In this document: in pieces, positions 14,177 through 34,199 of the stretch
Numbering within the stretch: the first letter of the stretch is position 1
Layout: every line of letters starts with the position of its first letter
Notes under the pieces: model-generated
The model's input: the letters and a program-made list of their open reading frames with translations, nothing else
Told to the model about the DNA's origin: nothing
Database searches by the model: none
Position numbers and translations under genes: made by a program
Origin: an uncultured virus (IMG/VR IMGVR_UViG_3300008266_011401)
Lineage: Duplodnaviria; Heunggongvirae; Uroviricota; Caudoviricetes
Length of the DNA: 64,000 nt
Virus record (IMG/VR): IMGVR_UViG_3300008266_011401
Direction: 5' to 3' (one strand)

Positions 14177-14383
14177 TTATTCCTTATCTGGACGTTTCTG
14201 ATGTTTCAAACTGTTCTTCTTTTTTCCACCCTTGTGTTCTTCTTCCGAACGTCTGGGGTGACGGATTTTCTCAAACCCCTCGTAGTTATCTTCCAACCCG
14301 AACTCTTCCTCATAATAGTCAAGTTCGTCATCATAGAATTCATCATCGTCATCAAACACAACATCACCTTGCCACTTTGGCAT
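14177..14383 (-). CDS. Small protein with acidic N-half and basic C-half
   Basis: GGAG RBS; D/E-rich then K/R-rich. Confidence 0.55.
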   Translation of the reverse strand: MPKWQGDVVFDDDDEFYDDELDYYEEEFGLEDNYEGFEKIRHPRRSEEEHKGGKKKNSLKHQKRPDKE

Positions 14384-14409
14384 CGTACAATCTCCTAAAT
14401 ATTATAAAG

Positions 14410-14796
14410 TTATTTTGCCCACTTACCACGCTTGACCAACTGACAGATAACCCCGTAAACCGATAGGTCTTGAAAGGTGTCGTCTATCGCCTCTCCTACA
14501 TTGTCCTTCTTACCTAATACGACCAACTGCTTCAACCGTTGAATCTTATCATTCATACGAAACCACAAACCAGTTAACGACAACTGAACATCATCAGGTG
14601 TTGATAACGAAGTCCCAACAGAAATATTACTTGGTCCATAGTTGGACTGTTTGACACAAAACGTTTCGTATTGCTCCATCATAATATTCCAGTATTCTTT
14701 GGTCATCTCTGGATATTCTCGTTCAATCTGTGCAACTATATCGGGTTTTTTATACACTGTTAAGTTGCCTGTAATACGATGTGACTCAATTTGCAT
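14410..14796 (-). CDS. DUF1599-like nucleotide-modification-associated protein
   Basis: KQSNYG...RMNDKIQRL...E.I.DT..DL.VY. Confidence 0.7.
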   Translation of the reverse strand: MQIESHRITGNLTVYKKPDIVAQIEREYPEMTKEYWNIMMEQYETFCVKQSNYGPSNISVGTSLSTPDDVQLSLTGLWFRMNDKIQRLKQLVVLGKKDNVGEAIDDTFQDLSVYGVICQLVKRGKWAK

Positions 14797-15586
14797 GTAA
14801 CCCTCTTATAGTAGACGAATCCCCGTTTGGGAATTTTGTATTGTTAAGACCATTGTGTGGAGGAACACCCCACTTATAGTAATATTGTTGCATTGCGAAT
14901 TGTTCTCTTTCTCTGAACTTCTGTGCTTCCGAATTCTTCTTTGTTGATACAGAACCAAAATGATACGAATGTAAGAAATGTGTACGTGATCTGGTAAGAC
15001 CAGGTATCAATTCTAACTTTGCGAAGAAATCCCAATCACAAAGATTTGGAGAATTGTAAAAGGTGTCAAATCCACCAACTGCCATATACCATTTCTTGTT
15101 TATCAAGAATGGAAATATATTTCCATCTGGTGTTTTCTTATTGGTAGACAATCTCCGTTCTTCATCAATGAACTTTTCCATATCAAATGTTTCAACCGTT
15201 TGTCCACAATCCATTACCGGAAAGTTAAACATTCCAGGACCAGTAGGTTCTATTTGATTGACTGTTAAGATTTCATTTGGGTCGTACTGCGACTCCAATT
15301 TCTTATCCCAATTTGGTGCGAACACATTATCATCGTTGATGATGAATATCTTTTCGTTGTTTGCATTCCACACACCCATGTTTAATGCGTGTTGCATCCC
15401 TTTATTTTCGGGAAGAGTGATAACGTCAATACCTTTGTGTTTGTTTATTACGTATTCACTTTCTTCTGCATATCCATCCAAGATAACAATTATTTCGTTA
15501 CCATTATGTTGTCCCCGTAACAATGAATGTAAACACAAATCCAAATATTTTGGATTACGATACGAGGGAATAATAACCGAAATCAT
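14786..15586 (-). CDS. Glycosyltransferase family 2
   Basis: ISVIIPSY, ILDG, NDD, GGFD, DWD. Confidence 0.9.
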   Translation of the reverse strand: MISVIIPSYRNPKYLDLCLHSLLRGQHNGNEIIVILDGYAEESEYVINKHKGIDVITLPENKGMQHALNMGVWNANNEKIFIINDDNVFAPNWDKKLESQYDPNEILTVNQIEPTGPGMFNFPVMDCGQTVETFDMEKFIDEERRLSTNKKTPDGNIFPFLINKKWYMAVGGFDTFYNSPNLCDWDFFAKLELIPGLTRSRTHFLHSYHFGSVSTKKNSEAQKFREREQFAMQQYYYKWGVPPHNGLNNTKFPNGDSSTIRGLHAN

Positions 15587-15587
15587 A

Positions 15588-16631
15588 TTAGTTTTTAAGT
15601 TTAGCTGTCTTGGCTTCCTGCACTAGTACATCGGTTTTCCAGAAGGGATAAATACCTTTTTCTACTTCATACTTACTCCACACTTGTCGTGGACGTTCTG
15701 GTTGTACTCGTGCCCATTCCCACATCTTCTTCAATCCTTCATATAAGTCTGTCTTGTGTTCGAATCCAAGAACATCAACCGATTTCTGCCAAGTAGGATA
15801 TGCATATTTCACTTCGTGTCGTGGGGGAAGATGTTTGATTTCACCACCACCCATCACATCAATCAATGTGTCTGCTGCTTCGTTGATACTATATTCCTTG
15901 ATACCACCCAAGTTAATAATTTGCTTGGATGCCTTCGGGTCGGTTCCTGCTCTCCACAAAGGTTCAAGAGAATCATCAATACAGCTAAATGCACGAACCT
16001 GATTACCATCACCGAAGATAGTTAATGGTTGATTGGTTAGCTTCTTATACATCCAGATACCTAACACATTACGATAGCTGTCCCAAATATTCTGGTTCGC
16101 ACCGAATACGTTGTGTGGTCGGATAATACACCAATCTAATCCATGCTGGACACCGGCGGTTTCAATATCCATTTCACACGCTGCCTTCGCAATACCATAC
16201 GAATCAATAGGTGCACGTGCCATATCTTCGTGGAATGGTGGTTCACCAGCACCAAATCCATACACACCCATCGAAGAAGTGAATACCAATCTCTTTACAC
16301 TGTGCTTAATACACTGGTTGATAACTCCCGCAGTTGCGAGAAGATTATTGGTGTAATTATACTGTCTGATGAATGGGGACAACGCTTCCGCTGCGTATGC
16401 TGCAAAGTGATACACGATATCAATTTGATGTGCATCGAAAACATATCCACAGTTCTGCGTGCCCAAATCAATATTATAAAACTTTACCTTTGGATTAATA
16501 TTTTCTTTATACCCACCACTAAAATCGTCAATACCAATAACGTCTACATCGGGTTGGTTTTCGATAATCCAATCAGCCAATCGTGATCCTAGAAGTCCAG
16601 CAACACCAGTGATTAATACAGTTTGTTTCAT
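15588..16631 (-). CDS. NAD-dependent sugar epimerase/dehydratase
   Basis: GVAGLLG, FTSS, YGIAK. Confidence 0.93.
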   Translation of the reverse strand: MKQTVLITGVAGLLGSRLADWIIENQPDVDVIGIDDFSGGYKENINPKVKFYNIDLGTQNCGYVFDAHQIDIVYHFAAYAAEALSPFIRQYNYTNNLLATAGVINQCIKHSVKRLVFTSSMGVYGFGAGEPPFHEDMARAPIDSYGIAKAACEMDIETAGVQHGLDWCIIRPHNVFGANQNIWDSYRNVLGIWMYKKLTNQPLTIFGDGNQVRAFSCIDDSLEPLWRAGTDPKASKQIINLGGIKEYSINEAADTLIDVMGGGEIKHLPPRHEVKYAYPTWQKSVDVLGFEHKTDLYEGLKKMWEWARVQPERPRQVWSKYEVEKGIYPFWKTDVLVQEAKTAKLKN

Positions 16632-16661
16632 TGTAAAGTAATTGTTAAAGGTTCATTAATA

Positions 16662-16690
16662 AGTATAACATCGTGACTGCTCTACGTCAA
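16662..16690 (-). promoter_or_regulatory. Sigma70-type promoter
   Basis: TTGACG-17 nt-TATACT. Confidence 0.75.
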
Positions 16691-16693
16691 GTA

Positions 16694-17440
16694 TCAAATA
16701 TCTTCCCACGAGTCAATTGAAAGACCAACCGTGGGTGCTTCATATCCTTTTAAACAATGTGTTGCTAATGACGGTAGTGGTTGTACTAATGCACGACCTT
16801 TTTCACGAAGTTTAAGAAAGATTGCAAAATCTTTTGTATTAATTAAATCTTCCGTTCCCCACATCCATACATCCATATCGTTCTTTATGGTACCAACAGT
16901 TGTTGCGAACGTATTGGTTGTAGAATTTGTTATCATCCAAAAATGGTCCTTCGTCTTAATAACTTGCGTAGGTTCCGATACATTTTCCATAGGAGTATAC
17001 GGATTCCCACCACGAGAGGGATCCCAAAACTTATCAGGATGTAAGTATCCAGTTGCGTAGTGTGCATAATTCAATGCCTCAATAATTTTATGTTCGGAAC
17101 CAGGAAGATATAAATAATCATCTTCTTGAAACAAAACAATTTCTTCATCATTTGTAATCTTTTGCACTTCGTCTAACAATACTCGCATAGACTTAGCATC
17201 GGACCCAGCCTGTATCTTGACGAGATTAACTCGTTCCGTTGCATCCGATAATTCATTTAACCATTTCCACGTTTCATCGGTGATGGAATCCACGAATATC
17301 GTAATCTCCGCCGTGGGGAAACAATTCAATGTATTCAACAAACACCGTTGTTTAGTGGCGTTTGGTAACTTCACCTGCCACGTTCGTTGTTGTGCATGTT
17401 GTGAATTACTGGACTCACTTATTCTGTAAAATATTTTCAT
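16694..17440 (-). CDS. Putative GT-A glycosyltransferase
   Basis: FQEDDYLY DxD-like motif; PSLATH. Confidence 0.65.
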   Translation of the reverse strand: MKIFYRISESSNSQHAQQRTWQVKLPNATKQRCLLNTLNCFPTAEITIFVDSITDETWKWLNELSDATERVNLVKIQAGSDAKSMRVLLDEVQKITNDEEIVLFQEDDYLYLPGSEHKIIEALNYAHYATGYLHPDKFWDPSRGGNPYTPMENVSEPTQVIKTKDHFWMITNSTTNTFATTVGTIKNDMDVWMWGTEDLINTKDFAIFLKLREKGRALVQPLPSLATHCLKGYEAPTVGLSIDSWEDI

Positions 17441-18329
17441 TATAAAACCGTTCTAATTCTTTTGGAAAGTGTTGTGTTGCAATTTGTCTAAACTCATCTT
17501 TACGATCAATACTGGACACTAAATCATTTAGGTATTTGTTGTTTTGTTGATGATTCTCACAAACTAATATACCGTCCAATACATACTGCTGCACAGGAAG
17601 TTTTTTGGATTCTCGTAACATTTGTGCACAAGTTAATACATAGGTATCTTCCAATCCGTAGTGACCGAATGATTCGGGTATTCCTGTTACTTTCAACAGT
17701 TTATTACTGATAACCGTTCCCCACCCACCAGCAGCTTTAAATGTATTGATTGGTCGAACCGCAACCCCAGTATCTCGTAATCCCAGATCAAATACATTTG
17801 CTGTTAGATTATCATTTAATTCTCTGGACAATAAATCGTCATGTACCAACACATCCCACGTAGTGTCCCACTGTCGTGTTATCTGTGGAGTTACTACATA
17901 GTAATCCACTCCACTATTTTTTATGGCTTTTACTGCATTACCAAGGTATCCAAGAAATCTGTCACCGAAGAATAAATCATTGTCCATCCACAAAGTAAAA
18001 TCGTAATCATCTACATATTTTAATGTATGTCGTCGTTGCGAAACACAGCCAAGTATTTCTGATTTGTATTCTATTCTAAATGTACTATCTGATGATTCCC
18101 AGGTACATAACGAACTTACTATATCAGAGAATTTATTAGCAAAATAAACTTGTGGTAGTTTTGAAGTTGACCAATCAATCATTTCATCACTTAAACATAA
18201 TGTGATATCAAATGTGTATTCCACATCCTCTGGTATCCATTCCGCGTTACGACGAAGATTATATAAAGTTAGATGTAAATTATCAATTTCGTGTGGTAAT
18301 ACAAAAATAGAAATTAAACCTTTGGTCAT
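17415..18329 (-). CDS. Putative GT-A glycosyltransferase
   Basis: WMDND; YGLEDT. Confidence 0.6.
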   Translation of the reverse strand: MTKGLISIFVLPHEIDNLHLTLYNLRRNAEWIPEDVEYTFDITLCLSDEMIDWSTSKLPQVYFANKFSDIVSSLCTWESSDSTFRIEYKSEILGCVSQRRHTLKYVDDYDFTLWMDNDLFFGDRFLGYLGNAVKAIKNSGVDYYVVTPQITRQWDTTWDVLVHDDLLSRELNDNLTANVFDLGLRDTGVAVRPINTFKAAGGWGTVISNKLLKVTGIPESFGHYGLEDTYVLTCAQMLRESKKLPVQQYVLDGILVCENHQQNNKYLNDLVSSIDRKDEFRQIATQHFPKELERFYNENILQNK

Positions 18330-18985
18330 ACCTTTATTCTCTGAACCACACCCACTCCCCAATCAGCTTCTCCACGACCAAACCATTCAACTGAGAAAAT
18401 ATCTGTGTCAATTGCATCTAACAATGCCACTGGACCTGGGTGGTAGTTTGTATCGTGGAATGCCATCACTCCATTTGGAATCATCTTTTCCCAATACTTC
18501 CATTCTTTGATTACTTGATTGACAGAATGCCATCCATCCACGAACATAAAGTCAATTTGTTCATGACCGTACCATTCCATCAATTGATACAAGCTTTCAT
18601 AGTTGGCGGAATCACCTTGAATTGTAAATATATTATTTTCTATACTATTCAAATATGTTTTGGGTTTAAGATCCATTCCAACATACATGCAGTCTGTTGG
18701 TTTGATACTGAGTAATGTGTTCGTGGAGGAAACACCACCACATTCATCTACACCAATTTCAACTATTAATTTAGGTTGGTGGGGTAATTTATTAAATGCA
18801 TATTTTAATGCTTCGTGATTAAGTGACGAAAAATGTACATTGGGTGAAGCATCAAAGTCACCTAACCAATCGGTATCATTGGAAATGCTAGGTTCCAGAG
18901 AGGGAAGATATTTTAGTCCATAAATATCTGTGGGTAACTTGGTTACCTTTGATAAAATATCATTCGTTCTGTCAAGTAAATTCAT
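18326..18985 (-). CDS. Class I SAM methyltransferase (Methyltransf_24-like)
   Basis: VEIGV..G.S, GDS, FVDGWHS, FHDT. Confidence 0.85.
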   Translation of the reverse strand: MNLLDRTNDILSKVTKLPTDIYGLKYLPSLEPSISNDTDWLGDFDASPNVHFSSLNHEALKYAFNKLPHQPKLIVEIGVDECGGVSSTNTLLSIKPTDCMYVGMDLKPKTYLNSIENNIFTIQGDSANYESLYQLMEWYGHEQIDFMFVDGWHSVNQVIKEWKYWEKMIPNGVMAFHDTNYHPGPVALLDAIDTDIFSVEWFGRGEADWGVGVVQRIKV

Positions 18986-18994
18986 AGTATTCTC

Positions 18995-20224
18995 TTAGAA
19001 AATTCTGTATTGTAAATCAGCGTTGACTGCTTTGTATCCCCACTTTTTAACAGCTGCGTCATATTCTGCTCCGTGGTTACCATCAATTGCTTGACGCATT
19101 GCCAATCCACCGGCGAGTGTACCCATTGGATGTCCATGCATTGCACCACCAACATTTGCCATCCAGTTATGACTATCAAGTAATCCGTTAATGTGCTGCA
19201 CCAATCCAGGATGCATTCCACAACTGAGTGCGGGGATAACATTGTAGTTCCACAACACCTTCAAGGCGTCTTGTAGTTCTGTGTCATCCTGATTCATATA
19301 CCCACCAATCATACCTGCGTGGATAGAGTCTGCACCAGACCACCCTGCAATCTTACAGATAACGGGCCAGTAGATATGATTCGGAGCACGACGGTCAGTG
19401 AAGAATTTATCCCCAGACTTCTGAAAGTGAATCCACAGATTAGGATTCTGTTTACGGATTGCACGATATGCACCCAACCCACTCCACACATTAATATGAA
19501 CACCCAATCCACCTTCATCCGAAACGAATTGTGCTCGTTGTAGTGCGTACGGACTGTCACCATTAATACAGAATGTGTACATTACATTCGGGGCGTTATT
19601 CGCCAACCAGTTGGTAATCAGTGGAACTCTCTTTGTCAACGGACAATGTGCCGGACTACCAAGGAGTTCATCTTCTTTAATAAAGTTTACACCACCATAT
19701 ACCATTTCCTTCACGGCTTCTAACAATACTTCTGGACTCATTCCAACCTTGGGTTTGATAATACCACCGAAGAATGGTTTGCCCTCGACACCATTAAACT
19801 TACGGAATCCATCAATACCATATGCTGGTTTCAATGTAAACTGTTGTTCAATATGTGCAGGTAGTGTTACGTCCAATACATGACATTGCTCAATTTCCAG
19901 AATGTCTACTTGACCACCGGCGATGTGGCAGAGGATTTGTGAGATACCATCTTCTTCTAAGTCTAGATTTTCTAGTGGAAATGCGATATCAACTTCACCG
20001 GAAAACTTCGACTTTAATTCATTTTCATCAGCGAGAACAAAACAACTGTGGTCACGAAACATCTGGTCAGTTTCCCATACACTACGATTGTTTGGATTAC
20101 CGATGCTTTGACCAATTGCCAAATTCCACGCGGCATCTCGTAGTGAAGTTTTCCCTGCAAGGAAGTACTTAACTATAAAATATTTGGATAAATCAATATC
20201 TCTTGTAAAAATATTTACGCTCAT
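18995..20224 (-). CDS. RuBisCO-like protein (form IV)
   Basis: GGIIKPKVG, GGVNFIKEDE, GADSIHAG, PALSCG, GGAMHGHP.G. Confidence 0.93.
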   Translation of the reverse strand: MSVNIFTRDIDLSKYFIVKYFLAGKTSLRDAAWNLAIGQSIGNPNNRSVWETDQMFRDHSCFVLADENELKSKFSGEVDIAFPLENLDLEEDGISQILCHIAGGQVDILEIEQCHVLDVTLPAHIEQQFTLKPAYGIDGFRKFNGVEGKPFFGGIIKPKVGMSPEVLLEAVKEMVYGGVNFIKEDELLGSPAHCPLTKRVPLITNWLANNAPNVMYTFCINGDSPYALQRAQFVSDEGGLGVHINVWSGLGAYRAIRKQNPNLWIHFQKSGDKFFTDRRAPNHIYWPVICKIAGWSGADSIHAGMIGGYMNQDDTELQDALKVLWNYNVIPALSCGMHPGLVQHINGLLDSHNWMANVGGAMHGHPMGTLAGGLAMRQAIDGNHGAEYDAAVKKWGYKAVNADLQYRIF

Positions 20225-20553
20225 TGTTTGTCTGTGACCTCGTATTTGTCGCCTATGACGGACGGTAATTTAACAACAATTAATTCACAATCTTCTAAAA
20301 ATTCTGGGTCTGCTATTTCATACGGAAATATAGTAAATATATCTCCTGTTGTCAATAGCTGTCCTTGTATTCGCATCTTGCCACGAATTAAATAGTTAAT
20401 TTCTATAGCCCTCTTGTGATAATGCTTACCCCAGATTTCACCTTTTTTATGACGAAGATATCCGACTTCAAAATCACTGGTCATCAATACGGATGGTGTA
20501 AAGTTTCCAATAAACCATCCACGAGTCATATCTTCAATTCTTTTTATTTCCAT
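20221..20553 (-). CDS. Cupin-fold protein
   Basis: GWFIGNF.P, HYH...E, G.M. Confidence 0.7.
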   Translation of the reverse strand: MEIKRIEDMTRGWFIGNFTPSVLMTSDFEVGYLRHKKGEIWGKHYHKRAIEINYLIRGKMRIQGQLLTTGDIFTIFPYEIADPEFLEDCELIVVKLPSVIGDKYEVTDKQ

Positions 20554-21265
20554 ATAATGCTCTGTATCGTTCAATATCTTCCAAGGTTCCTACTGCATAG
20601 TGTTCGGACGGAGTTATATCGTATACTCGTTTAGTTCCGTCCAGATAGTTGTATGAGGGACCAATATAATATTCACCATTAACAGTGTCTTTCACTTGTT
20701 TCATAGTATTCACCGAAGATGCGAAATCTTTGCCATACTTCCACCAGTGAATACCATTCAGTGAATAGTTACTAATCACTTCCTTTTCTTTTACCATTGT
20801 GAATTTTGGATATTTGTGTTCTACATTAGCCACCAACGCGTAACTATTTTTAGGCGTGTTAGTTTCGTAGGTCACCACCGCACCAATAGCATCGGTGGTT
20901 TTGGTAAACTCAATAAACTTATCGGCGTCCCAATGCATGATTTGGTCACAGTTGGTAACTAATAAATCAGTTTCTCCAAAAAATAATTGTGGAGCATGTA
21001 ACGCCGAAATGGCTGGACCATCGGTAAGATAATCAATTTCTACTACAACAGCCTGACCAACGGTTTTACGAATCGCATCACGAAGAGCCACATTCCAATC
21101 TTGATTGTTGTATCTACGAACAATGAAACAATAATGGCCATCTATGTTCAACGATTCCAATGCCATTTCAATCATAACTTTACCTGGTAATACTTCTACC
21201 AGTGGTTTGGGGACCGTGCTTTTTACACGAGTCCCCTCACCAGCCATTGGAATAATAATATTCAT
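20534..21265 (-). CDS. Sugar-phosphate nucleotidyltransferase
   Basis: IIIPMAGEGTR...PKPL, NCDQ, EK, NGEYY. Confidence 0.9.
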   Translation of the reverse strand: MNIIIPMAGEGTRVKSTVPKPLVEVLPGKVMIEMALESLNIDGHYCFIVRRYNNQDWNVALRDAIRKTVGQAVVVEIDYLTDGPAISALHAPQLFFGETDLLVTNCDQIMHWDADKFIEFTKTTDAIGAVVTYETNTPKNSYALVANVEHKYPKFTMVKEKEVISNYSLNGIHWWKYGKDFASSVNTMKQVKDTVNGEYYIGPSYNYLDGTKRVYDITPSEHYAVGTLEDIERYRALYGNKKN

Positions 21266-21269
21266 TTAA

Positions 21270-22163
21270 TCAAGCAACTGTTGAAGTAGTAAACTGTATG
21301 TCTGCGTGCTCACCCAATGATTCTGCCGACTTGGTACGCATGAATTCTTCATGTAGTGATTGACCCAACTGGTCCATTTGATTGAAGAACTGCTTACTCA
21401 AATCAAGATTCTTGTCAGTTACTAATGGAGTATAATCTGCTTGTGGGAAGTCAACCACCGAGTATGTATAATTCCAGTATGAAGCAAATTCCTCCCAACG
21501 ATTTTCTGCATCAATTAAATCCCAAACACGACTACCGATTGTTGGTACGGTGTGATAGTAAATAGATCTCTTTAATCCATCAAGTGTTCGCATACTACCA
21601 GCGATAATGTTTTGGTGACGTTGGATTTGTTGGTTTGCCAAATATTCCAAGTGTGCATCTGCATCAATTCCAACTTCTTCCATACGTCCTGGAATGATAC
21701 TAGCGAAGAACACACTTTGATAACTCAAAGACTTAATGATGGTATTTGCATCAGAAACACCTGTTACATTTAGATATAACTTACGAAGTTCTGGTGCGTC
21801 GGCGATTCGAAGTACATAACTGAAATGTGGAATCTTCAATGCCATAGCTGCACCATTACCGTTGAACTGGTCAACATATTGTGCCCATCGAATAATATCT
21901 TCTTCTTCCATAACTGAATTAGGGACTTGTACATATACTAATCCTTCTGGACCTTCACCACGAAGTTCTCCAACAAGTGAGGTCATCTGTGGAACAAGTG
22001 TTTCAAATTTATCCAATGTATCGCAGTTGACCTTTGCCAATGCGTTTGGATTGGTAGTAATACCAATTACGGAACTACCGTCAATATACTTACCCAACTT
22101 GTCCCAAATCTTACGGATATAGTCGGTGTCTGCTGTGTCAAAAAAGAATGTTGGTTGTGACAT
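21270..22163 (-). CDS. Transaldolase/fructose-6-phosphate aldolase-like protein
   Basis: FFDTAD, GITTNP, LKIP (Schiff-base Lys), NVT, GR, AGSMR. Confidence 0.85.
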   Translation of the reverse strand: MSQPTFFFDTADTDYIRKIWDKLGKYIDGSSVIGITTNPNALAKVNCDTLDKFETLVPQMTSLVGELRGEGPEGLVYVQVPNSVMEEEDIIRWAQYVDQFNGNGAAMALKIPHFSYVLRIADAPELRKLYLNVTGVSDANTIIKSLSYQSVFFASIIPGRMEEVGIDADAHLEYLANQQIQRHQNIIAGSMRTLDGLKRSIYYHTVPTIGSRVWDLIDAENRWEEFASYWNYTYSVVDFPQADYTPLVTDKNLDLSKQFFNQMDQLGQSLHEEFMRTKSAESLGEHADIQFTTSTVA

Positions 22164-22543
22164 TATGGATTCTCCACGGTTCTTGGTCCTTTGTTTATTC
22201 TATCTTTTATTGCTAAGATTGAGGTTTCCCAATCTGTATGTCTGTGTACCGCATCATCTATTATTAAATCGGCGTGAGGTTTACTCCACCAAATTTCATC
22301 ATATGGAATATCCCATTTTTCTAACCAATCAAACAATACTTTACCTTGTAACTTTAATACCCTTCCTTGATTCCCACCACCAGTTTTCATATGTCGTGCC
22401 GTATGAAGAATAATGGTGTGCCCTTCTTCTTTTAACCATCGTAACGTTTCTAATGCTTCTGGAAACGGCTTGACATCTGCGTAGGTCATATCACCAGTTT
22501 TATTTTCACAGATAGTATTATCTATATCAAAACAAAATATCAT
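22163..22543 (-). CDS. HAD-family phosphatase (capsule-biosynthesis type)
   Basis: FDIDNTI, HTAR, KP, IDD. Confidence 0.88.
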   Translation of the reverse strand: MIFCFDIDNTICENKTGDMTYADVKPFPEALETLRWLKEEGHTIILHTARHMKTGGGNQGRVLKLQGKVLFDWLEKWDIPYDEIWWSKPHADLIIDDAVHRHTDWETSILAIKDRINKGPRTVENP

Positions 22544-23310
22544 AATGTACCCTCAAAGGCTTTTACATCTGCTGGTGTACCAAGAGGTACAACATCAGTA
22601 ACGGTATGTACATATACTGGAATCCCTATACTCACATTATACGAGGCCACCATACTCATATAATACTCTGCGTTTCCATTAAACTCAACTGGTTTGTTAA
22701 ATTCCATAATAAACTTTGCATAGTTTGTAAAGAATTGTGTTTGACCAAAGTAGAATATACCAATCATCGTAGGATAGTGAACCCACGAATCATTCTTCTC
22801 ACGAATACCCACAGCCTTTCCATCTTCAATTATAACGTTCGACCATTTATTGGGTAGTGATTTGTCTGGATTATCAAAGCATGCTACTGCGACTGCATTA
22901 CTCTTAAATTTAATACCACGAATAAAATCATCAACACCATTATGATTATATTTGTTATCGGAATCAAGAACCAATAAGTCATCAGTTTTGTGCCACATAC
23001 GAGATGCTGCTTGTCTTGCGGTGTCTAAACTTCCCGAAGTAATTTCTTTAAACGGAATGATTTCTATGTTACGACCGTAAATGGAATATAAAAATTTATC
23101 CAATCCAGCATCCAAATGTTCTTGCAAAACTGCAAAATATAAATGAATGTTACTCGACTGTCCCTTTCCATCGTGACGAATATATGGACATGATTCCGTT
23201 GTCCATTGTAAGATTGTCTTACCATTTATTTGAATTAATGGTTTGGGGTCTTTGTATCCTTCGTTTACAAAACGTTGACCCCTACCAGCCATTAACACTA
23301 AGACGTTCAT
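22540..23310 (-). CDS. Sugar-phosphate nucleotidyltransferase
   Basis: LMAGRGQRF...PKPLI, DSD, EK, EYY, LGTP. Confidence 0.88.
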   Translation of the reverse strand: MNVLVLMAGRGQRFVNEGYKDPKPLIQINGKTILQWTTESCPYIRHDGKGQSSNIHLYFAVLQEHLDAGLDKFLYSIYGRNIEIIPFKEITSGSLDTARQAASRMWHKTDDLLVLDSDNKYNHNGVDDFIRGIKFKSNAVAVACFDNPDKSLPNKWSNVIIEDGKAVGIREKNDSWVHYPTMIGIFYFGQTQFFTNYAKFIMEFNKPVEFNGNAEYYMSMVASYNVSIGIPVYVHTVTDVVPLGTPADVKAFEGTL

Positions 23311-24293
23311 AATTCCAATGCCTCGTTTAATAATCTTATACCTGTGAGGTACATTGCTCGTTGTCTTTCCAGACTATCATAATGACGAGCACACATCCCA
23401 ATAAAGATGCAGCCTTGGATAATTTTTATTTCCTTCTTATTAAACATTGGAAAGAAAATATATTCAAACTCATTCAATGCCCAATCAAGTTCACCGTCAT
23501 TCTTAATGTCCAATTGATACGCATTGCCATTTGCTGTAACCTTAAACTTATCAGTAATAAATGCTTCATACGTTCCATCCAATGAATGATATAGTTTAGC
23601 TATATCGTATCGAATATCACCGTAATTTCCAAGTTTACCAAATGAACCACGAGGATCTATGAAACGAATAATATTTTTATCTTCACCATATAAAATATTA
23701 CTAAAACAACAATCACCGTGTATAAGTGATGGAGTAAAAGTTAACATATTTTGTTCGATGTAATTCTTAATCTGTGGCCAGACTACTTCGAACATGGAGT
23801 ATTGTTTATTGTTAATGTATACTGAATGTGCACGAACTTGGTCAATAAACAACGAATCAAACTTATCGTGCCACCCAGAATAAAAATTACGGTACTCACG
23901 TTCTGTTTTTGTGATGTACATATCGTACGCTGCATTACGAATTTCTTCGTCAGTCCACTTAACTCGTGGACTGATGTTAGACCACGACACAAGAATGTTT
24001 CGTAAATTAAGGAAAAATTCAGACCACGACGGCATAATTTTGTCACCAAACAAATAATTACCAACGTTTGGATAACTATACAATTCCAAATCCATCCAAA
24101 AGTCTGCTATTAACGGTTCTACGTGATCGAGTAATCTTGGAAAAAATACTGCTTGTGATGGATGATACTTTTGTAATTTTACATAATATAATATCTCATC
24201 ACGGAGTCGTTCGGTGGAACTTAATTTCCGAACAACTCCTCGCGTTTCATCTACTTCAAATCTATTGTATGCTCGTGTGACTAATTTTTCCAT
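23307..24293 (-). CDS. APH/choline-kinase-fold sugar kinase
   Basis: HGDCCFSNIL, FIDPRG, YDIAKL. Confidence 0.85.
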   Translation of the reverse strand: MEKLVTRAYNRFEVDETRGVVRKLSSTERLRDEILYYVKLQKYHPSQAVFFPRLLDHVEPLIADFWMDLELYSYPNVGNYLFGDKIMPSWSEFFLNLRNILVSWSNISPRVKWTDEEIRNAAYDMYITKTEREYRNFYSGWHDKFDSLFIDQVRAHSVYINNKQYSMFEVVWPQIKNYIEQNMLTFTPSLIHGDCCFSNILYGEDKNIIRFIDPRGSFGKLGNYGDIRYDIAKLYHSLDGTYEAFITDKFKVTANGNAYQLDIKNDGELDWALNEFEYIFFPMFNKKEIKIIQGCIFIGMCARHYDSLERQRAMYLTGIRLLNEALEL

Positions 24294-24296
24294 AAA

Positions 24297-24932
24297 TCAT
24301 CCCACTTGGAATGGTGGTTCCCATCCTGTTTCGTTACAATATTCAATGACTTCATCAATAGAAATCGTATTCAATGCCCATCGTTCTGCGTAGGGAATGA
24401 GGTCTGGGACTCGTGCCATACTACCATCATCATTCATAATCTCACAGATGATTGCAACTGGTTTCGTTCCAGCCATCATAGCAAGTTGAACAGATGCTTC
24501 GGTATGACCCTGCCGTTCCTTCAACAAACCAGGACGGGGACGGAGTGGAAACAAGTGACCTGGGTATGCAAGTTGTTCTGGTTTGGTATTTTCATCTAGT
24601 ACCAATCCAATCGTGACCATACGATCTTCTACACTTACACCAGTAGTGACACCATCACGTGCGTCAATACTGACGGTGAATGGAGTCGAAAACTTATCGT
24701 TATTGTTAGATGGACTCATAGGAATTTCTAAACGATCTAACATAAACTTTGGTGTAGGAATACACATGATACCTCGTGCTTCCTTTGCGATAAAAGCCAG
24801 TGTTTCTGGTGTTGCTTTTTCCGCTGCAATCATCAAGTCACCTTCATTTTCTCTATCGTAACTATCTACGACGATGATTGGTTTTCCGTTGCGGATATCT
24901 TCTAATACTGTTTTAATTTTTTCTGATAACAT
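24297..24932 (-). CDS. ribB: 3,4-dihydroxy-2-butanone 4-phosphate synthase
   Basis: DRENEGD, FTVSID, TGVS..DR, PGHLFPL, R.GHTEAS, ICEI. Confidence 0.96.
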   Translation of the reverse strand: MLSEKIKTVLEDIRNGKPIIVVDSYDRENEGDLMIAAEKATPETLAFIAKEARGIMCIPTPKFMLDRLEIPMSPSNNNDKFSTPFTVSIDARDGVTTGVSVEDRMVTIGLVLDENTKPEQLAYPGHLFPLRPRPGLLKERQGHTEASVQLAMMAGTKPVAIICEIMNDDGSMARVPDLIPYAERWALNTISIDEVIEYCNETGWEPPFQVG

Positions 24933-24944
24933 TTACCTTTCCCC

Positions 24945-25814
24945 TTATACGATTTTACAAATGTCGAAGTCTAATGAATTTATGTCTAACCACGGATACC
25001 AATCAATCTCTTCTTCGGTTGGCCCGTTTACGAAGTTTTCAAACGTGTTTGGTGACTGTCCTCTCCACTTTCTATCATTCCAAGTCAGCTTCTCAAACTT
25101 TTGTGTTTTTGCTCCGCACTGCGGAACTACATGCTTACTTGCTCGTGTCCAGTATTTATCCAACCCTACATCATTCCACCTAAGATATGGGAATCCATCT
25201 CCATATTCAGCGTGTCCAGTTTTACAAATCGGACTAACTATTTGACCCTCTACGTTTATTTGTTCGGGCCAATTATGCCATGCGTGATAATCAACCAACG
25301 ATGCTCTGTTGTGTCCTAAATCTCTACGTAATGCTCGTGTACTGAAATCCAGTTCGTGGTTTCCGTTTGTAGCGTATCGTTCATCCCACCATCCGAAAAA
25401 TCGTAATCCTTCCAATGTCATTAAGGTAACTTGGTCACCTTGTGGGGCCATATATAAATCATAATCGGTTTGCTTGATAATGTCAACCCACCCATCCTTA
25501 ATAATCATATTGTCGTGAGCAGTTATACAATATTTTTTACCGGAAAGAAAAGTGTGAACATATGCTTGATTGTAGTTTTCAACCATAGGACCGATTGCGT
25601 AATCGTGTCTCATCACATTATTCCAAATCTTAACACGAGATTTAATATCATCTGCGAAGTCATCAATGGTGACTGATGAATGATTGGTGATGATGTTGAC
25701 TCGTTCAAAGTCAAAGGTATTTAACCACTCACGTGCAAATCCATCCATCAACTCCTTTCTTCGCCAGTTGGAAATCCAAAGTTCAACGTTATCTGGTGTA
25801 AAATCTGTTCTCAT
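24945..25814 (-). CDS. Putative glycosyltransferase
   Basis: HDN, GWWDERY, ELD; cluster context. Confidence 0.5.
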   Translation of the reverse strand: MRTDFTPDNVELWISNWRRKELMDGFAREWLNTFDFERVNIITNHSSVTIDDFADDIKSRVKIWNNVMRHDYAIGPMVENYNQAYVHTFLSGKKYCITAHDNMIIKDGWVDIIKQTDYDLYMAPQGDQVTLMTLEGLRFFGWWDERYATNGNHELDFSTRALRRDLGHNRASLVDYHAWHNWPEQINVEGQIVSPICKTGHAEYGDGFPYLRWNDVGLDKYWTRASKHVVPQCGAKTQKFEKLTWNDRKWRGQSPNTFENFVNGPTEEEIDWYPWLDINSLDFDICKIV

Positions 25815-25815
25815 C

Positions 25816-27365: not shown

Positions 27366-27366
27366 A

Positions 27367-27966
27367 TTAATTAAAGAACTGTATTATAATCATCACATCA
27401 TCTGCGAGTCCGTTCGGACGCATGTGTTGATCTAGTATGGTTACTGCATAGTTACGGTCGGGTATCATATATACACCACGAGTTAAATAATCAAATAGAT
27501 TTGGTAAGTACATATCCTCACAGATATAATATCCACCTGGTTTTACAAGTGCGTGGTATTTTAATATTGCTTTGACTTGGTTATCAATATCATGTGCACC
27601 ATCTTCAATAAACACATCTTGCTTCGGTAAGTTCTGTACTAGATAGTTACCATTATCTTCATTGTATGCGTCACCAAATATCATATTAACATTAGGTAAC
27701 GTTGAAAGATAATCCTTTCGTACAGGTTCTACAATATCAAGTCCGGTAATTATACCCTTTGTAAAATATTGCGACCACATCAACAGACTTGCACCAGATG
27801 CAATACCCAATTCCATCAATTGAACAGGTTCGTCTTTCCATGCAGAGAATAATGCATCGTACGTATCAATATAAAAATGCTTATGTAACGGATGCCTATC
27901 TCCTTTGTCAGACAAACCAATATCAGGAATATCTTCCATTTGGTAGTAAAATTCTTTTAGTCTCAT
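27367..27966 (-). CDS. SAM-dependent (sugar O-)methyltransferase
   Basis: ELGIASGASL, GLDI, IEDGAH, PGGYYICED. Confidence 0.85.
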   Translation of the reverse strand: MRLKEFYYQMEDIPDIGLSDKGDRHPLHKHFYIDTYDALFSAWKDEPVQLMELGIASGASLLMWSQYFTKGIITGLDIVEPVRKDYLSTLPNVNMIFGDAYNEDNGNYLVQNLPKQDVFIEDGAHDIDNQVKAILKYHALVKPGGYYICEDMYLPNLFDYLTRGVYMIPDRNYAVTILDQHMRPNGLADDVMIIIQFFN

Positions 27967-28799
27967 ATCCAAAACCATTCACTTGGTAGAAGGTCTATAA
28001 TACTGTTATGACGAAGGTTTGGTCCGAACCACTGTGACGGTGCGGTTACAATCTTCTTGGGGTTTGGATTTAACCATGCTCCCCACCAACTAAACGAACT
28101 ATTTGCAATGATGTGATGGTCACACATACTCATCATACACATTTCTACATATGAGTTATTGATATCTACAATATATCCACCTTCGAACATTTCCTTACAC
28201 CATTCTGGATCATCGGAGAATACTACAAACCGATAAGGTTCTTTCGAAAAGAACTTGTTGATAGCCTCCGCATAGTATTCCATTCCAGTGACCGTATGGT
28301 TTGCAGAGTTTGCCACATAATCTCCACGACGAACGTGGATAGATACTCGTGGTGCATCATCCTTTACCTTTGCCAGTTCTAATTCAGCTTGCTGTCGAAT
28401 TTCTGGACGAAAGGTAAATACTTCACGGACTTTTTGTTCTGCATGTTTGAAATATTTTTCACTTTGAAAGAACCCAGCAATATCAATATTATCTGGGATA
28501 TCTAATGCTGCACCATTAAAATGAAAGAATTGTTCTTGATATCGTTGCTTGACAACATCTGAAATTTCTGCCATTGGTGCAAAGTAACTGTCGGGAATAA
28601 GAAATGGTCTACGAAGTTCCATACCAGTTGGTTCTGCTTGCTGCTTTGCCAAATCATAAAATACGAAGTTATCACCAGTATTTTCTATTGGAATTTTTAC
28701 ATCATATCCGTTCTTTTCTGCGATACCAATGAGTGCAGCCATTTGAAACATTTGGTTACCAAATCTCCCAGAGTTTCCTATACCGACATGCGTAATCAT
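27963..28799 (-). CDS. Alpha-1,2-fucosyltransferase family (GT11)
   Basis: GRFGNQMFQ, HVRRGDY, FSDD, NSSFSWW. Confidence 0.95.
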   Translation of the reverse strand: MITHVGIGNSGRFGNQMFQMAALIGIAEKNGYDVKIPIENTGDNFVFYDLAKQQAEPTGMELRRPFLIPDSYFAPMAEISDVVKQRYQEQFFHFNGAALDIPDNIDIAGFFQSEKYFKHAEQKVREVFTFRPEIRQQAELELAKVKDDAPRVSIHVRRGDYVANSANHTVTGMEYYAEAINKFFSKEPYRFVVFSDDPEWCKEMFEGGYIVDINNSYVEMCMMSMCDHHIIANSSFSWWGAWLNPNPKKIVTAPSQWFGPNLRHNSIIDLLPSEWFWI

Positions 28800-29815
28800 A
28801 TAGAGGTAACCTGTTCGTTAATCCAGTGATATGTTTTGGTAATGCCGTCAACCAATGGAGAATTTGGCTCCCAATTGAGGTGTTGACGAATTAACCGATT
28901 GTCAGAGGAACGTCCACGAACCCCTAACGGACCTGGAATATGATTAATAGTTAACTTCTTACCAGCGATTCCCATAATCATATAAGCAAAATCGTTAATT
29001 GAAATCATTTCTTCCGAACCGATATTAACAGGACCAGTAAAATCTGAATGGGTTAACCGTAAGATACCTTCGACACATTCATCTACATAAAGGAATGAAC
29101 GGGTTTGCTTTCCGTCACCAAACATATCAATTGAACCACCTTCTGGTGTCTGCGCAATCTTTCTGCACATCGCAGCGGGTGCCTTTTCACGCCCACCTTC
29201 CCATGTCCCTTCTACACCATATACATTATGGAAACGAGCAATGCGTGGTTCTATGCCGAAGTTACGCTTGTACGACATATACAATCGTTCACTGAATAAT
29301 TTTTCCCATCCATATTCACTATCTGGGTTTGCTGGATATGCTGAACTTTCTTCACAGTTTGGATTATCTGGGTCTAACTGGTTATGCTCTGGATAGATAC
29401 ACGCCGATGACGAATAGAATACTCGTTTTAATCCCAACGTCACCATTGCTTTCAATGTATTTAAATTGATTAACGCCGAGTTGGTCATTACATTTGCGTC
29501 ATGCTCACCAGTAAAGATGTATGATGCTCCACCCATATCAGCAGCTAATTGATATACTTCGACATCGGTACGGCCCAAACTTAATGCGTTCAAGCATGTT
29601 TGATAATCCGATAAATCTCCGTGTACAACATCGTCTGCAAATGTGTTTACATCACAATGTTCTGGAAGTTTAATATCTGCCACACGAACCCAGTAACCTT
29701 CGTTCTGTAATCGTCGTGCGAGGTGGTGGCCTATAAAACCACAACCACCGAGTACCACAGCGACTTTATCCGCTGTGCTCAGTGGTTTTTTACTAACGTT
29801 ACCTTCTTCTGTCAT
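28796..29815 (-). CDS. GDP-mannose 3,5-epimerase-like protein
   Basis: GGCGFIG, AADMGG, SSACIYPE, YGWEK, GGREKAPAA.CRK, GVRGR.SDN. Confidence 0.88.
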   Translation of the reverse strand: MTEEGNVSKKPLSTADKVAVVLGGCGFIGHHLARRLQNEGYWVRVADIKLPEHCDVNTFADDVVHGDLSDYQTCLNALSLGRTDVEVYQLAADMGGASYIFTGEHDANVMTNSALINLNTLKAMVTLGLKRVFYSSSACIYPEHNQLDPDNPNCEESSAYPANPDSEYGWEKLFSERLYMSYKRNFGIEPRIARFHNVYGVEGTWEGGREKAPAAMCRKIAQTPEGGSIDMFGDGKQTRSFLYVDECVEGILRLTHSDFTGPVNIGSEEMISINDFAYMIMGIAGKKLTINHIPGPLGVRGRSSDNRLIRQHLNWEPNSPLVDGITKTYHWINEQVTSI

Positions 29816-29975
29816 GTAACCCTTCCTATTGTATTAGTTTTATTCTTTTGCTACTGCTACGTGCTTACCAGTACAGATGTAGTACCAAACAGTCCACCAT
29901 TCTTTTTCTGGTATATATCTTTTTAAGTTTATTCTATCTTGTTTTGATTCCGTTAATGGGTGTTCTGTTATAACA

Positions 29976-30359
29976 TTATTCCCCATACATATTCTCCGTT
30001 ACGTTTTCTTCTGTCTTTAACACAGTTTTCTTAATGAATACTTCACGTAACGTAGATATCTTCGTTAATAAATAGGTTCGATAGGGTCTGTCACCAACGA
30101 AATTTGAGTTTTTGAAACGGTCGTAAATTACCTGAGTATCAGTTTCATCACCAATCAATTTAAATATTTGACCAAGTTTTTCTGGTGTTAGAGAACCCAG
30201 TGACAAAGCGTGCATTTTACCTTCCCAATTGGGATTGAGTACGAGTGCATATTTCTGCTCATTATCGTAGGTAAACTGCACCACTTTGCCAGTAGTCAAA
30301 TCTTTTCGAGAAACGAAAGTACGAACACCTAATGTACCTTTATACCCTTCTATTGCCAT
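29976..30359 (-). CDS. Hypothetical protein
   Basis: 127-aa coupled ORF. Confidence 0.55.
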   Translation of the reverse strand: MAIEGYKGTLGVRTFVSRKDLTTGKVVQFTYDNEQKYALVLNPNWEGKMHALSLGSLTPEKLGQIFKLIGDETDTQVIYDRFKNSNFVGDRPYRTYLLTKISTLREVFIKKTVLKTEENVTENMYGE

Positions 30360-31666
30360 TAGTTAATCTTCTTTAATGTTGGAAGAACCAATTTAGTTTC
30401 AACGGAAAATTGTGGAACATATTTGTCTAACAACTCAACTGTTCTGTTAAAAATAGTTTGATACGAGAACTTCTTAACATTTTGTTTTGCTAACAACTGT
30501 GCCTTCTTTTTAAAATTACTGTAATTCTTAAATACGGCGTACATTGCGTTTGCTGATTGGTTCATATCAGGAGCGAACCACGTAGACTCCCGAATCAATA
30601 CACCGTCCCACACAGAACTTTCGTGGATAGGTTTGAGTTCACCACCAATTAGTAATGAATTGTCTTTATCCAAGAAATCAAGTTGACCACTCCATCCAGA
30701 TGCGATTACGGGTTTGCCACTAATTGATGCTTCAAGTAATGGTCTACCAAACCCTTCACCCTTGGTTAAACTTACGTGTGCTTTTACCTTTGAGTGGTTA
30801 TATAAAGAATTCATTTCTTTGTCTGTTAACTCACCATGCAATAAATAAATATTCGGCATGCTCTGTCCAACGTTCAAAGTAACAGATTTCTTGATTTGTT
30901 CTATTTTCTTTAATATATCTTCTCTGTCCAAGATAGAAAATCCAGCACTACTAGTTTTTAAAATAAGCGCAGGCTTTTCTTTTTCTGGAACTTGTCGGAA
31001 TGTTTCAAGGAATATTTTCACCAACAGTGCAACATTCTTACGGTCCTCTCCAAATTCACCACGGAGCCAGTGACCAACGAAAAGATAACAGAACTTCTCT
31101 GGGATGCTATCCAATGTTTCTCGTATTTTTGGCTCTAAATTAAAATCATATTCGATTTTTTTAAATATGTTATTGTCAATACAATTGTGTAATACTTCAA
31201 TTGGTTTGGTGACTGCTAGTTCACCAATGATATTACCTTGTTGATTTTGCTGTGAGTACTTTGAGAAATGAAAAACATTCTTTGAGTGTTCGGAAATAGT
31301 CAGTACTAAATCCATTTTATTACATGCTTGTATCCATTCAGCAGAAGCCACGGTGGTTTCAATGCCGGCGGTTATACCGATATTGTACTTTCCTAACGGT
31401 TCAAATTCTGTTGGGATGGTAATTGTAACATACAATGATGGTTGTGGTAATTGTCCACCACGAATGATTCTATCCAAAATCATTTTGTCCTTTGGATTAG
31501 TTTCATCCAGTGCATTCATAGGAGTATCACCCCACGGTACACTGTGCACCTTCACATCAAACTTATCCCATTCAATGATGTGACGGATAATGTCTCTACT
31601 CATATCACCATAACCAGAACGAGTCTGGCATGGTGCTCTAACTATACATAACGGTTTGCCTGTCAT
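30359..31666 (-). CDS. Glycosyltransferase family 4-like (GT-B)
   Basis: RKN, GEGFGRPLLEA, WSGQLDF. Confidence 0.88.
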   Translation of the reverse strand: MTGKPLCIVRAPCQTRSGYGDMSRDIIRHIIEWDKFDVKVHSVPWGDTPMNALDETNPKDKMILDRIIRGGQLPQPSLYVTITIPTEFEPLGKYNIGITAGIETTVASAEWIQACNKMDLVLTISEHSKNVFHFSKYSQQNQQGNIIGELAVTKPIEVLHNCIDNNIFKKIEYDFNLEPKIRETLDSIPEKFCYLFVGHWLRGEFGEDRKNVALLVKIFLETFRQVPEKEKPALILKTSSAGFSILDREDILKKIEQIKKSVTLNVGQSMPNIYLLHGELTDKEMNSLYNHSKVKAHVSLTKGEGFGRPLLEASISGKPVIASGWSGQLDFLDKDNSLLIGGELKPIHESSVWDGVLIRESTWFAPDMNQSANAMYAVFKNYSNFKKKAQLLAKQNVKKFSYQTIFNRTVELLDKYVPQFSVETKLVLPTLKKIN

Positions 31667-31667
31667 A

Positions 31668-33068: not shown

Positions 33069-33092
33069 CTAAACTCCTATAATATTTTTATT

Positions 33093-34190: not shown

Positions 34191-34199
34191 ATAATTCTC

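Follow-up and report, generated by a model that had tools for sequence, protein, structure and literature searches.

The window analysed here is a stretch of 64,000 nucleotides of DNA from an uncultured virus (IMG/VR record IMGVR_UViG_3300008266_011401). Between positions 18995 and 24932 it contains eight open reading frames (ORFs), all on the minus strand and abutting or overlapping by 1-20 nt. In the order of transcription they code for RibB, a kinase of the APH fold, a nucleotidyltransferase (NTase; NT1), a small HAD phosphatase, a transaldolase-like protein (the aldolase below), a second nucleotidyltransferase (NT2), a cupin and a RuBisCO-like protein (RLP). This order, and its location inside an island of glycosyltransferase (GT) genes, agree with an original prediction made from the letters of the window alone (Table 1), which had also proposed that the RLP and the aldolase act in one pathway. 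The eight genes are instead two recurrent cassettes placed head to tail, with no single conserved pathway. We call them module A (RibB, kinase, NT1, HAD and aldolase) and module B (NT2, cupin and RLP). Both gene sets are kept in many independent contigs, so the arrangement is not due to chance. The interpretation that we favour, with moderate confidence, is that they are two independent feeder cassettes for two nucleotide-activated sugars, which a freshwater phage carries within its glycan island.

Searching IMG/VR with the RLP gave 121 relatives among 125 candidate stretches, of which the best 80 loci were kept and are the basis of all the counts out of 80 given below. Neighbours were counted in these loci by tblastn (E <= 1e-5, at least 50% of the query covered). 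The cupin and NT2 were each found in 76 of the 80 loci, usually arranged as NTase-cupin-RLP and 0-50 nt apart. The window has the same order, with stops overlapping starts, and most matches of the NT1 query in RLP loci also fall on the NTase of this unit. When the loci were grouped at 95% RLP identity, the NTase cluster was present in 59 of 62 groups, and one representative protein (P0127, 667 aa) is an RLP fused to an NTase. In 23 of the 80 loci the RLP is followed directly by a methyltransferase homologue. By ORF clustering, a family of small proteins (~150 aa) appears in 63 of the 80, mostly just downstream of the RLP. By its profile, this family aligns to glycerophosphodiester phosphodiesterases over their catalytic N-terminal motif (1.1e-4; HRG..EN..E.D..HD), and we refer to it as mini-GDPD-like. 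Judging from gene order, the partners of the RLP are NT2 and the cupin and mostly also the mini-GDPD-like protein, the last one missing from the window. The linkage of RLP and NTase in glycan loci, together with the fusion, makes an anabolic role in sugar-nucleotide synthesis the best reading, in support of what the original prediction had suggested.

Scanned as single proteins, NT1 and NT2 give weak family matches only. The profile of the NT2 family matches PDB 4evw, a solved NDP-sugar pyrophosphorylase, at 9.2e-32, followed by ManB/RmlA types. For the cupin, the homologues favour a start at the ATG in position 20553 (110 aa) over the listed TTG in 20574. The protein carries the motif G-x5-HxH-x4-E-x6-G, with H44, H46 and E51 invariant, and its predicted structure (predicted local distance difference test, pLDDT, 95.3) has the cupin fold. 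Foldseek gave 224 PDB matches at E <= 0.001, with nearly all of the top matches listed being cupins. The nearest folds are small cupins, including the phosphomannose isomerase (PMI) of the archaeon Thermococcus and KdgF, and no Pfam cupin subfamily was matched at its cut-off. A complex prediction for the RLP and the cupin had a score of 0.00, which counts neither for nor against binding.

The RLP is a member of the RuBisCO large-subunit superfamily (PF00016, 2.9e-33, 115.8 bits with a cut-off of 30.1) that stays under every NCBIfam cut-off, with 153.4 bits versus 497.45 for form III and 96.7 versus 489 for form II. Its residues were analysed in an alignment to solved RuBisCOs and in an alignment of 36 RLPs. 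Invariant in all 36 are K157 and K159, which we take to be the equivalents of RuBisCO K175/K177, K183-E-D-E186 (presumably K201, D203 and E204), H302 (presumably H327), S334 and G336 (presumably S379/G381) and G359-G360 (presumably G403/G404). Equally invariant are the replacements Q268, K269, Y309, G104 and G38/N43/P44, at positions that we assume to correspond to H294, R295, K334, N123 and E60/T65/W66, respectively. The protein therefore has the carbamate lysine, the metal ligands and the Lys175/Lys177 pair of the bona fide RuBisCOs (forms I-III) and does not have their carboxylation and P2-site residues (Lys334, His294, Arg295, Asn123, Glu60/Thr65/Trp66). Such a pattern indicates a constrained enzyme with a metal site predicted to be competent for enolisation and, in all likelihood, no carboxylase.

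A tree was made from 103 sequences (quick search, LG+G4, no bootstrap). Besides the RLP of the window it includes 8 viral and 8 cellular relatives, and the other 86 are representatives that took their label from the best-matching NCBIfam model. Ten of an initial 96 representatives (340-520 aa) were left out, six of them before the NCBIfam scan and four as truncated OiaX-like or weakly labelled sequences. The window RLP was located inside a clade of 37 rows that contains the 8 viral and 8 cellular sequences (support 99 in the Shimodaira-Hasegawa-like approximate likelihood ratio test, SH-aLRT). Within it, a protein from a metagenome-assembled genome (MAG) of Beckwithbacteria and the phage RLPs of IMG/VR group with that of the window (SH-aLRT 99-100). 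The clade is separate from the MtnW-like (9 rows, SH-aLRT 96) and OiaX-like (18 rows, SH-aLRT 95) clades and from forms II and III. The scores agree with the tree. With 115.5 bits versus the 700 required for OiaX, the protein is outside the OiaX/OiaC apiose pathway, and the apiose-type link of the original prediction does not hold. It also falls outside the methionine-salvage clade, as that prediction required, with 94.5 versus 409 and 71.5 versus 513.6 bits for the MtnW/YkrW enolases of 2,3-diketo-5-methylthiopentyl-1-phosphate. A branched sugar as the product is pure conjecture.

From its position in the tree, the window RLP belongs to the phage/Beckwithbacteria 'IV-like' clade described by Jaffe, Castelle, Dupont and Banfield (bioRxiv 10.1101/386292, PMC6389311), who reported about 90 phage 'form IV-like' RLPs and, in the passages on phages, discuss carbon metabolism and gene transfer and leave the function open. 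Like the members described there, the window protein is divergent from other RLPs and non-canonical at key residues. Those passages make no mention of an NTase-cupin-RLP(-GDPD) module, of an RLP::NTase fusion or of a setting in glycan loci. Some other representative proteins have unusual architectures. P0225 (583 aa) carries a TIR_2 domain (3.3e-13) at its N-terminus, joined to a complete RuBisCO large-subunit-like protein, and could be a defence-type fusion, going by its domains. P0162 and P0166 (726 and 742 aa) are fusions of an IF-2B-family protein, of the ribose-1,5-bisphosphate isomerase type, with RuBisCO, which join two steps of the archaeal AMP pathway in one protein.

Module B is not restricted to viruses. 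In species-representative genomes we found 26 cellular RLP loci, with an NT2-like gene in 24, the mini-GDPD-like gene in 15 and the cupin in 10. Among them are the complete chromosome of a Pelagibacter, a chromosome of the Verrucomicrobiae and a contig of the isolate Azospirillum oleiclasticum. According to Pfam their surroundings are of a glycan type, the Pelagibacter locus containing a GT9, a CMP-sugar synthetase-like protein and a HAD::NTase protein, and the Azospirillum locus a GT41 and genes of sulfate activation. None of the 26 had a match to RibB, the kinase or the aldolase, and the HAD query matched only one, that of Pelagibacter (L093). In this last locus (L093:749-2119) a HAD_2 domain of the beta-phosphoglucomutase type is fused to the NT2-like NTase, and in a phage locus (L136:10802-12164) a similar HAD_2 adjoins the NT2-like NTase. 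This pairing hints that in some versions a phosphomutase might supply the sugar 1-phosphate. Next to the NT2-like NTase and the mini-GDPD-like genes, the same phage locus has a sulfotransferase-like gene and an APS kinase (L136:12167-14155) and that of Azospirillum has CysD and CysN/C, for the synthesis of PAPS (3'-phosphoadenosine 5'-phosphosulfate; L105:6771-9568), so some lineages may sulfate the product. RLP-cupin-NTase units with RLPs 51-52% identical were also found on five GVMAG-binned contigs (L070, L073, L074, L075 and L078), which are either real genes of nucleocytoplasmic large DNA viruses or mis-binned phage DNA.

In module A, RibB is well defined (PF00926 1.2e-73, 247.1 bits; TIGR00506 214.6 bits, above the cut-off of 177.45) and can be identified as a 3,4-dihydroxy-2-butanone 4-phosphate (DHBP) synthase. 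The kinase falls slightly short of the APH model (22.3 bits, cut-off 23.2) and matches phrog_21938 at 7e-51. Its HGD..N and DPRG motifs do not vary among 24 homologues, its structure matches in the Atlas are NTase-APH fusions (template modelling score, TM, 0.89), and by tblastn it matches NTase-kinase fusion genes of T4-like phages (E 1e-6 to 6e-14). The kinase profile found no PDB sequence at E <= 0.01. NT1 forms a clade with the NTases located between kinase and HAD in other module A loci (SH-aLRT 100). The HAD matches EcbF/BcbF (TIGR01689, 6.1e-17) and HAD-IIIA (TIGR01662, 1.6e-5), in both cases below the cut-off, and has homologues in 358 phage records, including neighbourhoods of the RB69 type. 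The aldolase as a single protein stays below the family cut-off (PF00923, 17.7 bits versus 27; phrog_440 2.8e-14) and found only chance matches in PDB. Its relatives score 31.3-47.6 bits for the family model, and a profile of 25 sequences matched the solved short transaldolases 3r8r (6.5e-13) and 4xz9 (1.4e-12). The invariant K110 is aligned to the Schiff-base lysine of the KIP motif, indicating membership in the transaldolase/fructose-6-phosphate aldolase (FSA) family. Compared with 4xz9 and 3r8r, an invariant Gln is found at the Glu position and a nearly invariant Ile at that of Phe/Tyr. We take the Glu to be the acid/base residue of transaldolase and FSA to have a Tyr where transaldolase has the Phe, so that this aldolase departs from the standard form of both enzymes.

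The single kinase sequence found only the same phage in IMG/VR, and the alignment of 24 sequences gave 79 loci, 57 of them with a full-length match. In these 57 we found the HAD in 45, an NT1-type match in 40, RibB in 38 and the aldolase in 37. The order was always RibB-kinase-(NTase)-HAD-aldolase or NTase::RibB-kinase-HAD-aldolase. The NTase::RibB fusions (449-480 aa) make up 6 of 29 distinct RibB ORFs, and the one of L136 was confirmed by Pfam. Among cultured phages, module A was found only in Synechococcus phage S-SKS1 (NC_020851, SWZG_00042 to SWZG_00038), where an NTase::RibB fusion (475 aa, 52% identical to the window in the RibB part) is followed by the kinase (39%), the HAD (47%), the aldolase (37%) and a GT4. 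It differs from the window in the fusion of the NTase to RibB and in having no RLP or cupin. In its record these genes are annotated as hypothetical, 'phosphoheptose isomerase' and 'transaldolase'. The second of these names is given to the small HAD (SWZG_00040, L107:9947-10303) there and in many records of T4-like phages, and since Pfam gives only HAD/NT5C-type families for this protein it is probably a mis-annotation that has been propagated. Among the matches listed in a literature search for S-SKS1, no title referred to the module A cassette.

The two modules seldom meet. RibB, the kinase and the aldolase were each found in 5 of the 80 RLP loci, and the HAD query in 8. The five with RibB, kinase and aldolase (L001-L004 and L007) are all of the window lineage, L001 and L007 being the window's own phage. 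From the other side, the RLP is present in 7 of the 57 kinase loci, which are five of the window lineage plus L135 and L141. In whole records, the RLP profile found nothing in the five with module A (S-SKS1 and four from IMG/VR, two of them at least 90% complete) and the kinase profile nothing in nine large RLP records (five at least 90% complete), while the positive controls were recovered by both profiles (3/3 each). At the level of whole records modules A and B are independent, and the single pathway of RLP and aldolase in the original prediction is not supported. Of the recurrent neighbourhood that it anticipated, the NTase is indeed found with the RLP in phage and bacterial glycan loci, whereas the aldolase, the HAD and the kinase rarely are.

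Table 1 Features of the window in and around the eight-gene run
Feature	Position	Strand	Basis
RibB (module A), 3,4-dihydroxy-2-butanone 4-phosphate synthase	24297..24932	-	PF00926, TIGR00506
APH/choline-kinase-fold kinase (module A), probable anomeric sugar kinase	23307..24293	-	phrog_21938, motifs, structure matches
Nucleotidyltransferase NT1 (module A)	22540..23310	-	NTase tree clade; weak NTP_transferase matches
Small HAD phosphatase (module A), EcbF/BcbF-like, AfhF-like	22163..22543	-	TIGR01689, HAD-IIIA
Divergent transaldolase/FSA-family Schiff-base aldolase (module A)	21270..22163	-	phrog_440, family profile
Nucleotidyltransferase NT2 (module B), 4evw-like sugar-1-phosphate NTase family	20534..21265	-	profile match
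Small metal cupin (module B)	20221..20553	-	motif, model, Foldseek; listed ORF 20221-20574
RuBisCO-like protein, RLP (module B), phage/Beckwithbacteria 'IV-like' clade	18995..20224	-	PF00016, tree
Methyltransferase directly downstream of RLP, frequent module B accessory	18326..18985	-	Methyltransf_24 2.1e-7, CmcI-like 5.2e-4
289-aa protein just upstream of RibB	24945..25814	-	no Pfam family at E <= 1
Two tandem GT-A-like paralogues, candidate transferases	25816-26598, 26595-27365	-	model + Foldseek
Downstream glycan island	14786..18362	-	GT2 14786-15586, SDR epimerase/dehydratase 15588-16631, two unknowns; Pfam
Upstream glycan island	27367..33068	-	methyltransferase-like, GT11, SDR epimerase/dehydratase, small unknown protein, two GT4; Pfam

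The phage origin of the window is clear from PHROG matches to a DNA polymerase (phrog_262, 2e-184), a clamp loader, a ligase, a ribonucleotide reductase and a virion protein. The replication genes are T4-like, and among isolates Microcystis phage Mel-JY01 is the nearest, its DNA polymerase being 43% identical. Neither megablast of the region nor a tblastn search with the RLP gave a match among GenBank phages. At 78 kb, the source record is a fragment with a completeness of about 41%. The island around the eight genes contains GT2, GT11, two GT4, two SDR epimerase/dehydratases, methyltransferases and two GT-A-like copies, with a further weak GT2_4 match in its downstream part. The GT-A-like family (model pLDDT 86.7) has only GT6-type GT-A glycosyltransferases as top Foldseek matches, at TM of only 0.4-0.49. 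ORF clustering found it in 44 of the 80 RLP loci, and the two queries one by one by tblastn in 30 and 37. The query starting at 26595 also matched 38 of the 57 kinase loci, and the 289-aa protein upstream of RibB has homologues in nine of these 57. Scans of positions 14300-34250 gave 69 promoter-like sites versus 72.8 +/- 9.2 expected and 16 terminator-like sites versus 11.7 +/- 3.6, with no terminator-like site on the minus strand inside the eight-gene run.

For the order of the reactions, the substrates, the products and the acceptor we infer the following scheme. Module A would work by analogy to the UDP-arabinofuranose route of phages. As outlined in PMC13326640 for phage HY126, an isomerase turns ribulose 5-phosphate into arabinose 5-phosphate, from which this nucleotide sugar is made by AfhE, which combines a kinase and an NTase, and by the HAD AfhF. 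The Straboviridae route to UDP-D-arabinofuranose, as described in that account, thus starts from ribulose 5-phosphate and proceeds from a sugar 5-phosphate through the 1,5-bisphosphate and the 1-phosphate to the NDP-sugar, the same logic that module A seems to follow. Its APH-fold kinase would phosphorylate the anomeric carbon of a sugar omega-phosphate, the small HAD would take off the distal phosphate and NT1 would turn the sugar 1-phosphate into an NDP-sugar. RibB, which would convert ribulose 5-phosphate to DHBP and formate, and the divergent Schiff-base aldolase would supply the carbon skeleton and replace the arabinose-5-phosphate isomerase. Module A has the kinase, small HAD and NTase of the AfhE/AfhF-type set, a comparison made through the fusion genes of T4-like phages and not with the HY126 proteins themselves. 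It differs from AfhE in that kinase and NTase are separate genes, and its homology to the Straboviridae-type genes is remote (25-40% identity). In the place of the isomerase it has RibB and the aldolase, and general family scans found no SIS family (the type of the arabinose-5-phosphate isomerase) among the eight genes or their neighbours. The acceptor of the Straboviridae route, in the same account, is DNA.

The phosphate walk from the distal to the anomeric position is also known from the NDP-heptose pathways, with GmhA, the kinase HddA or HldE, the HAD phosphatase GmhB and the NTase HddC or HldE. GmhB presumably belongs to the HAD-IIIA class that the module A HAD matches below cut-off. The kinase of module A has the APH fold, not GHMP or PfkB, there is no GmhA, and matches to HddC were weak and limited to 8 of 33 members of the NT2 family. 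In module B the RLP would enolise or isomerise a ketose phosphate, with the carbamylated-lysine/metal site, the KPK lysines and the P1 phosphate loop retained. The PMI/KdgF-like metal cupin would carry out a second isomerisation or epimerisation, and NT2 would activate the product of the two. An RLP and a small cupin side by side are also found in the MTA-isoprenoid shunt of Rhodospirillum rubrum and Rhodopseudomonas palustris, where a DeepYkr RLP and a cupin methylsulfurylase act successively on a ketose phosphate (PMC5893883). That pathway involves a different RLP clade, is catabolic or salvage, has no NTase and is found outside glycan loci, and its cupin is a thiol-dependent methylsulfurylase. 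The neighbouring glycosyltransferases and methyltransferases of the window would then install and decorate the activated units on a glycan.

Several observations weigh against two independent cassettes of this kind. Various window genes have single-protein family scores under the curated cut-offs, and several MAG or single-amplified-genome contigs among the 'cellular' RLP loci may be phage DNA. DHBP has four carbons and cannot cyclise, and a further step would be needed to turn it into the substrate of an anomeric kinase. Other points can be read in favour of one eight-step pathway, in which ribulose 5-phosphate would be turned by module A into a sugar phosphate, to be remodelled by the cupin and the RLP and activated by one NTase, or in which the modules would be alternative entries to the same NTase family and product class. 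The modules are adjacent in two arrangements, that of the window lineage and that of L135/L141 (RLP 50-53% and kinase 38-40% identical), which join them in another order with a single detectable NTase gene within 17 kb for both. In the NTase tree, the NT1-type enzymes are a long-branch clade of their own, and the RibB-fused NTase domains of S-SKS1 and L131 group with the NTases of module B (SH-aLRT 97); given this intermingling, the modules may have some functional link. A mini-GDPD-like gene and an NT2-like NTase stand beside module A without an RLP in six loci (L120, L136-L139 and L144). The mini-GDPD-like gene is missing from the window lineage, and a profile of 49 sequences found none in the window or in the 78-kb record, from which, at about 41% completeness, absence from the whole genome cannot be concluded. 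We nevertheless consider a common pathway rather unlikely. RLP loci with the module A genes and kinase loci with an RLP are too few, the whole-record searches were negative with working controls even in nearly complete records, and the cellular RLP loci are devoid of RibB, kinase and aldolase, with a HAD match in only one. Both modules inhabit glycan islands, so their adjacency can be coincidental.

The activated sugars could instead be donors for DNA hypermodification (glycosylated bases), as in phages RB69, DLP3 and HY126. In the account of PMC13326640 only one kinase/HAD/NTase trio of this type has been characterised, and it is used, together with GT-B transferases, for the arabinosylation of DNA. 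The window contains two GT4, a ThyX, a weak DUF1599 match and a Mom-like gene. We regard this as improbable, given that no hydroxylase or hydroxymethylase family of the ThyA type was found among the window ORFs scanned (part of the ORFs, in a fragmentary record), that the GT2, GT11, GT-A-like, SDR epimerase and O-methyltransferase-like genes of the island are those of a typical polysaccharide locus and that module B has lipopolysaccharide- or capsule-like contexts in Pelagibacter and Azospirillum. Two further explanations were considered and rejected. A recycling of 5'-methylthioadenosine or 5-deoxyribose similar to methionine salvage would make the kinase an MtnK, the RLP an MtnW enolase or DeepYkr isomerase, the HAD an MtnX and the cupin an MtnD dioxygenase or a methylsulfurylase, the same four folds being found in the Bacillus pathway as PMC3698126 presents it. 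The chances of this are very small. Besides the MtnW scores and the separate clade already mentioned, the kinase has no match to an MtnK model at E <= 0.01, no MtnA/IF-2B-type isomerase (PF01008) was found among the window ORFs scanned, kinase and HAD are module A genes missing from most RLP loci, and the NTase to which the RLP is coupled, and once fused, has no function in salvage. It is just as hard to believe in unrelated auxiliary metabolic genes, with RibB for riboflavin, the transaldolase for the pentose phosphate pathway and the RuBisCO for carbon fixation. The cyanophage transaldolase is a known auxiliary family (the phrog_440 match) and RibB is above the equivalog cut-off, but the equivalents of K334, H294 and N123 are missing in all 36 RLPs, the aldolase has the acid/base residue of neither transaldolase nor FSA, no further riboflavin gene was seen, RibB is fused to an NTase in several of its relatives and the order within the conserved cassettes is strict.

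In the phage RLP clade, reported in 2018/2019 without a function, gene order in most loci and one fusion connect the RLP with an enzyme of sugar activation. This link holds across phages, SAR11, Verrucomicrobiota, bacteria of the candidate phyla radiation and DPANN archaea, and reduces the question of module B to three small proteins. In module A, RibB appears to have been recruited, often by fusion, into a sugar-nucleotide route. More tentatively, both cassettes might lead from ribulose phosphate into one NTase family, as alternative or consecutive routes to undescribed activated short-chain, 1-deoxy or branched sugars on the surface glycans of phages, SAR11 and ultra-small bacteria and archaea. 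To our knowledge few RLP clades have assigned reactions, and all of these are catabolic or salvage steps. If this last proposal were true, the RuBisCO fold would for the first time have an anabolic function, and RibB for the first time one outside flavin synthesis. Phage RLPs are already in print, and the NTase-cupin-RLP module and the RibB cassette were not found there, in literature searches that did not reach bioRxiv supplements and subscription journals.

The stretch was found nearly unchanged (0.97-0.98 of the sampled words) in metagenomes of freshwater and lakes, and also in two runs that bear the label fungus metagenome. These belong to eight studies of 2017-2024, or six after excluding runs flagged as a possible source of the window DNA. 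With such a wide freshwater occurrence the glycan, whatever it is, belongs to a common lake phage, and it may affect adsorption, the evasion of defence or the remodelling of the host surface. Short pieces of the HAD, NT1, the NT2/cupin junction, the 5' end of RibB and the methyltransferase, with 0-4 differences, were detected in two metatranscriptome libraries, where DNA carry-over is possible, so that they are no proof of expression.

The window also contains a Mom-like DNA modification protein (40762-41589, phrog_1384 5.3e-51), a ThyX (11429-12094, PF02511 6.9e-44) and a weak match to DUF1599, 'nucleotide modification associated' (14410-14796, 22.7 bits, below 25). From these matches, the phage may modify its own DNA. 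Further PHROG matches are those of an AAA ATPase to 'porphyrin biosynthesis' (3087-4247, 1.8e-24) and, weakly, of a 752-aa protein to 'cobalamin biosynthesis protein' (6118-8376).

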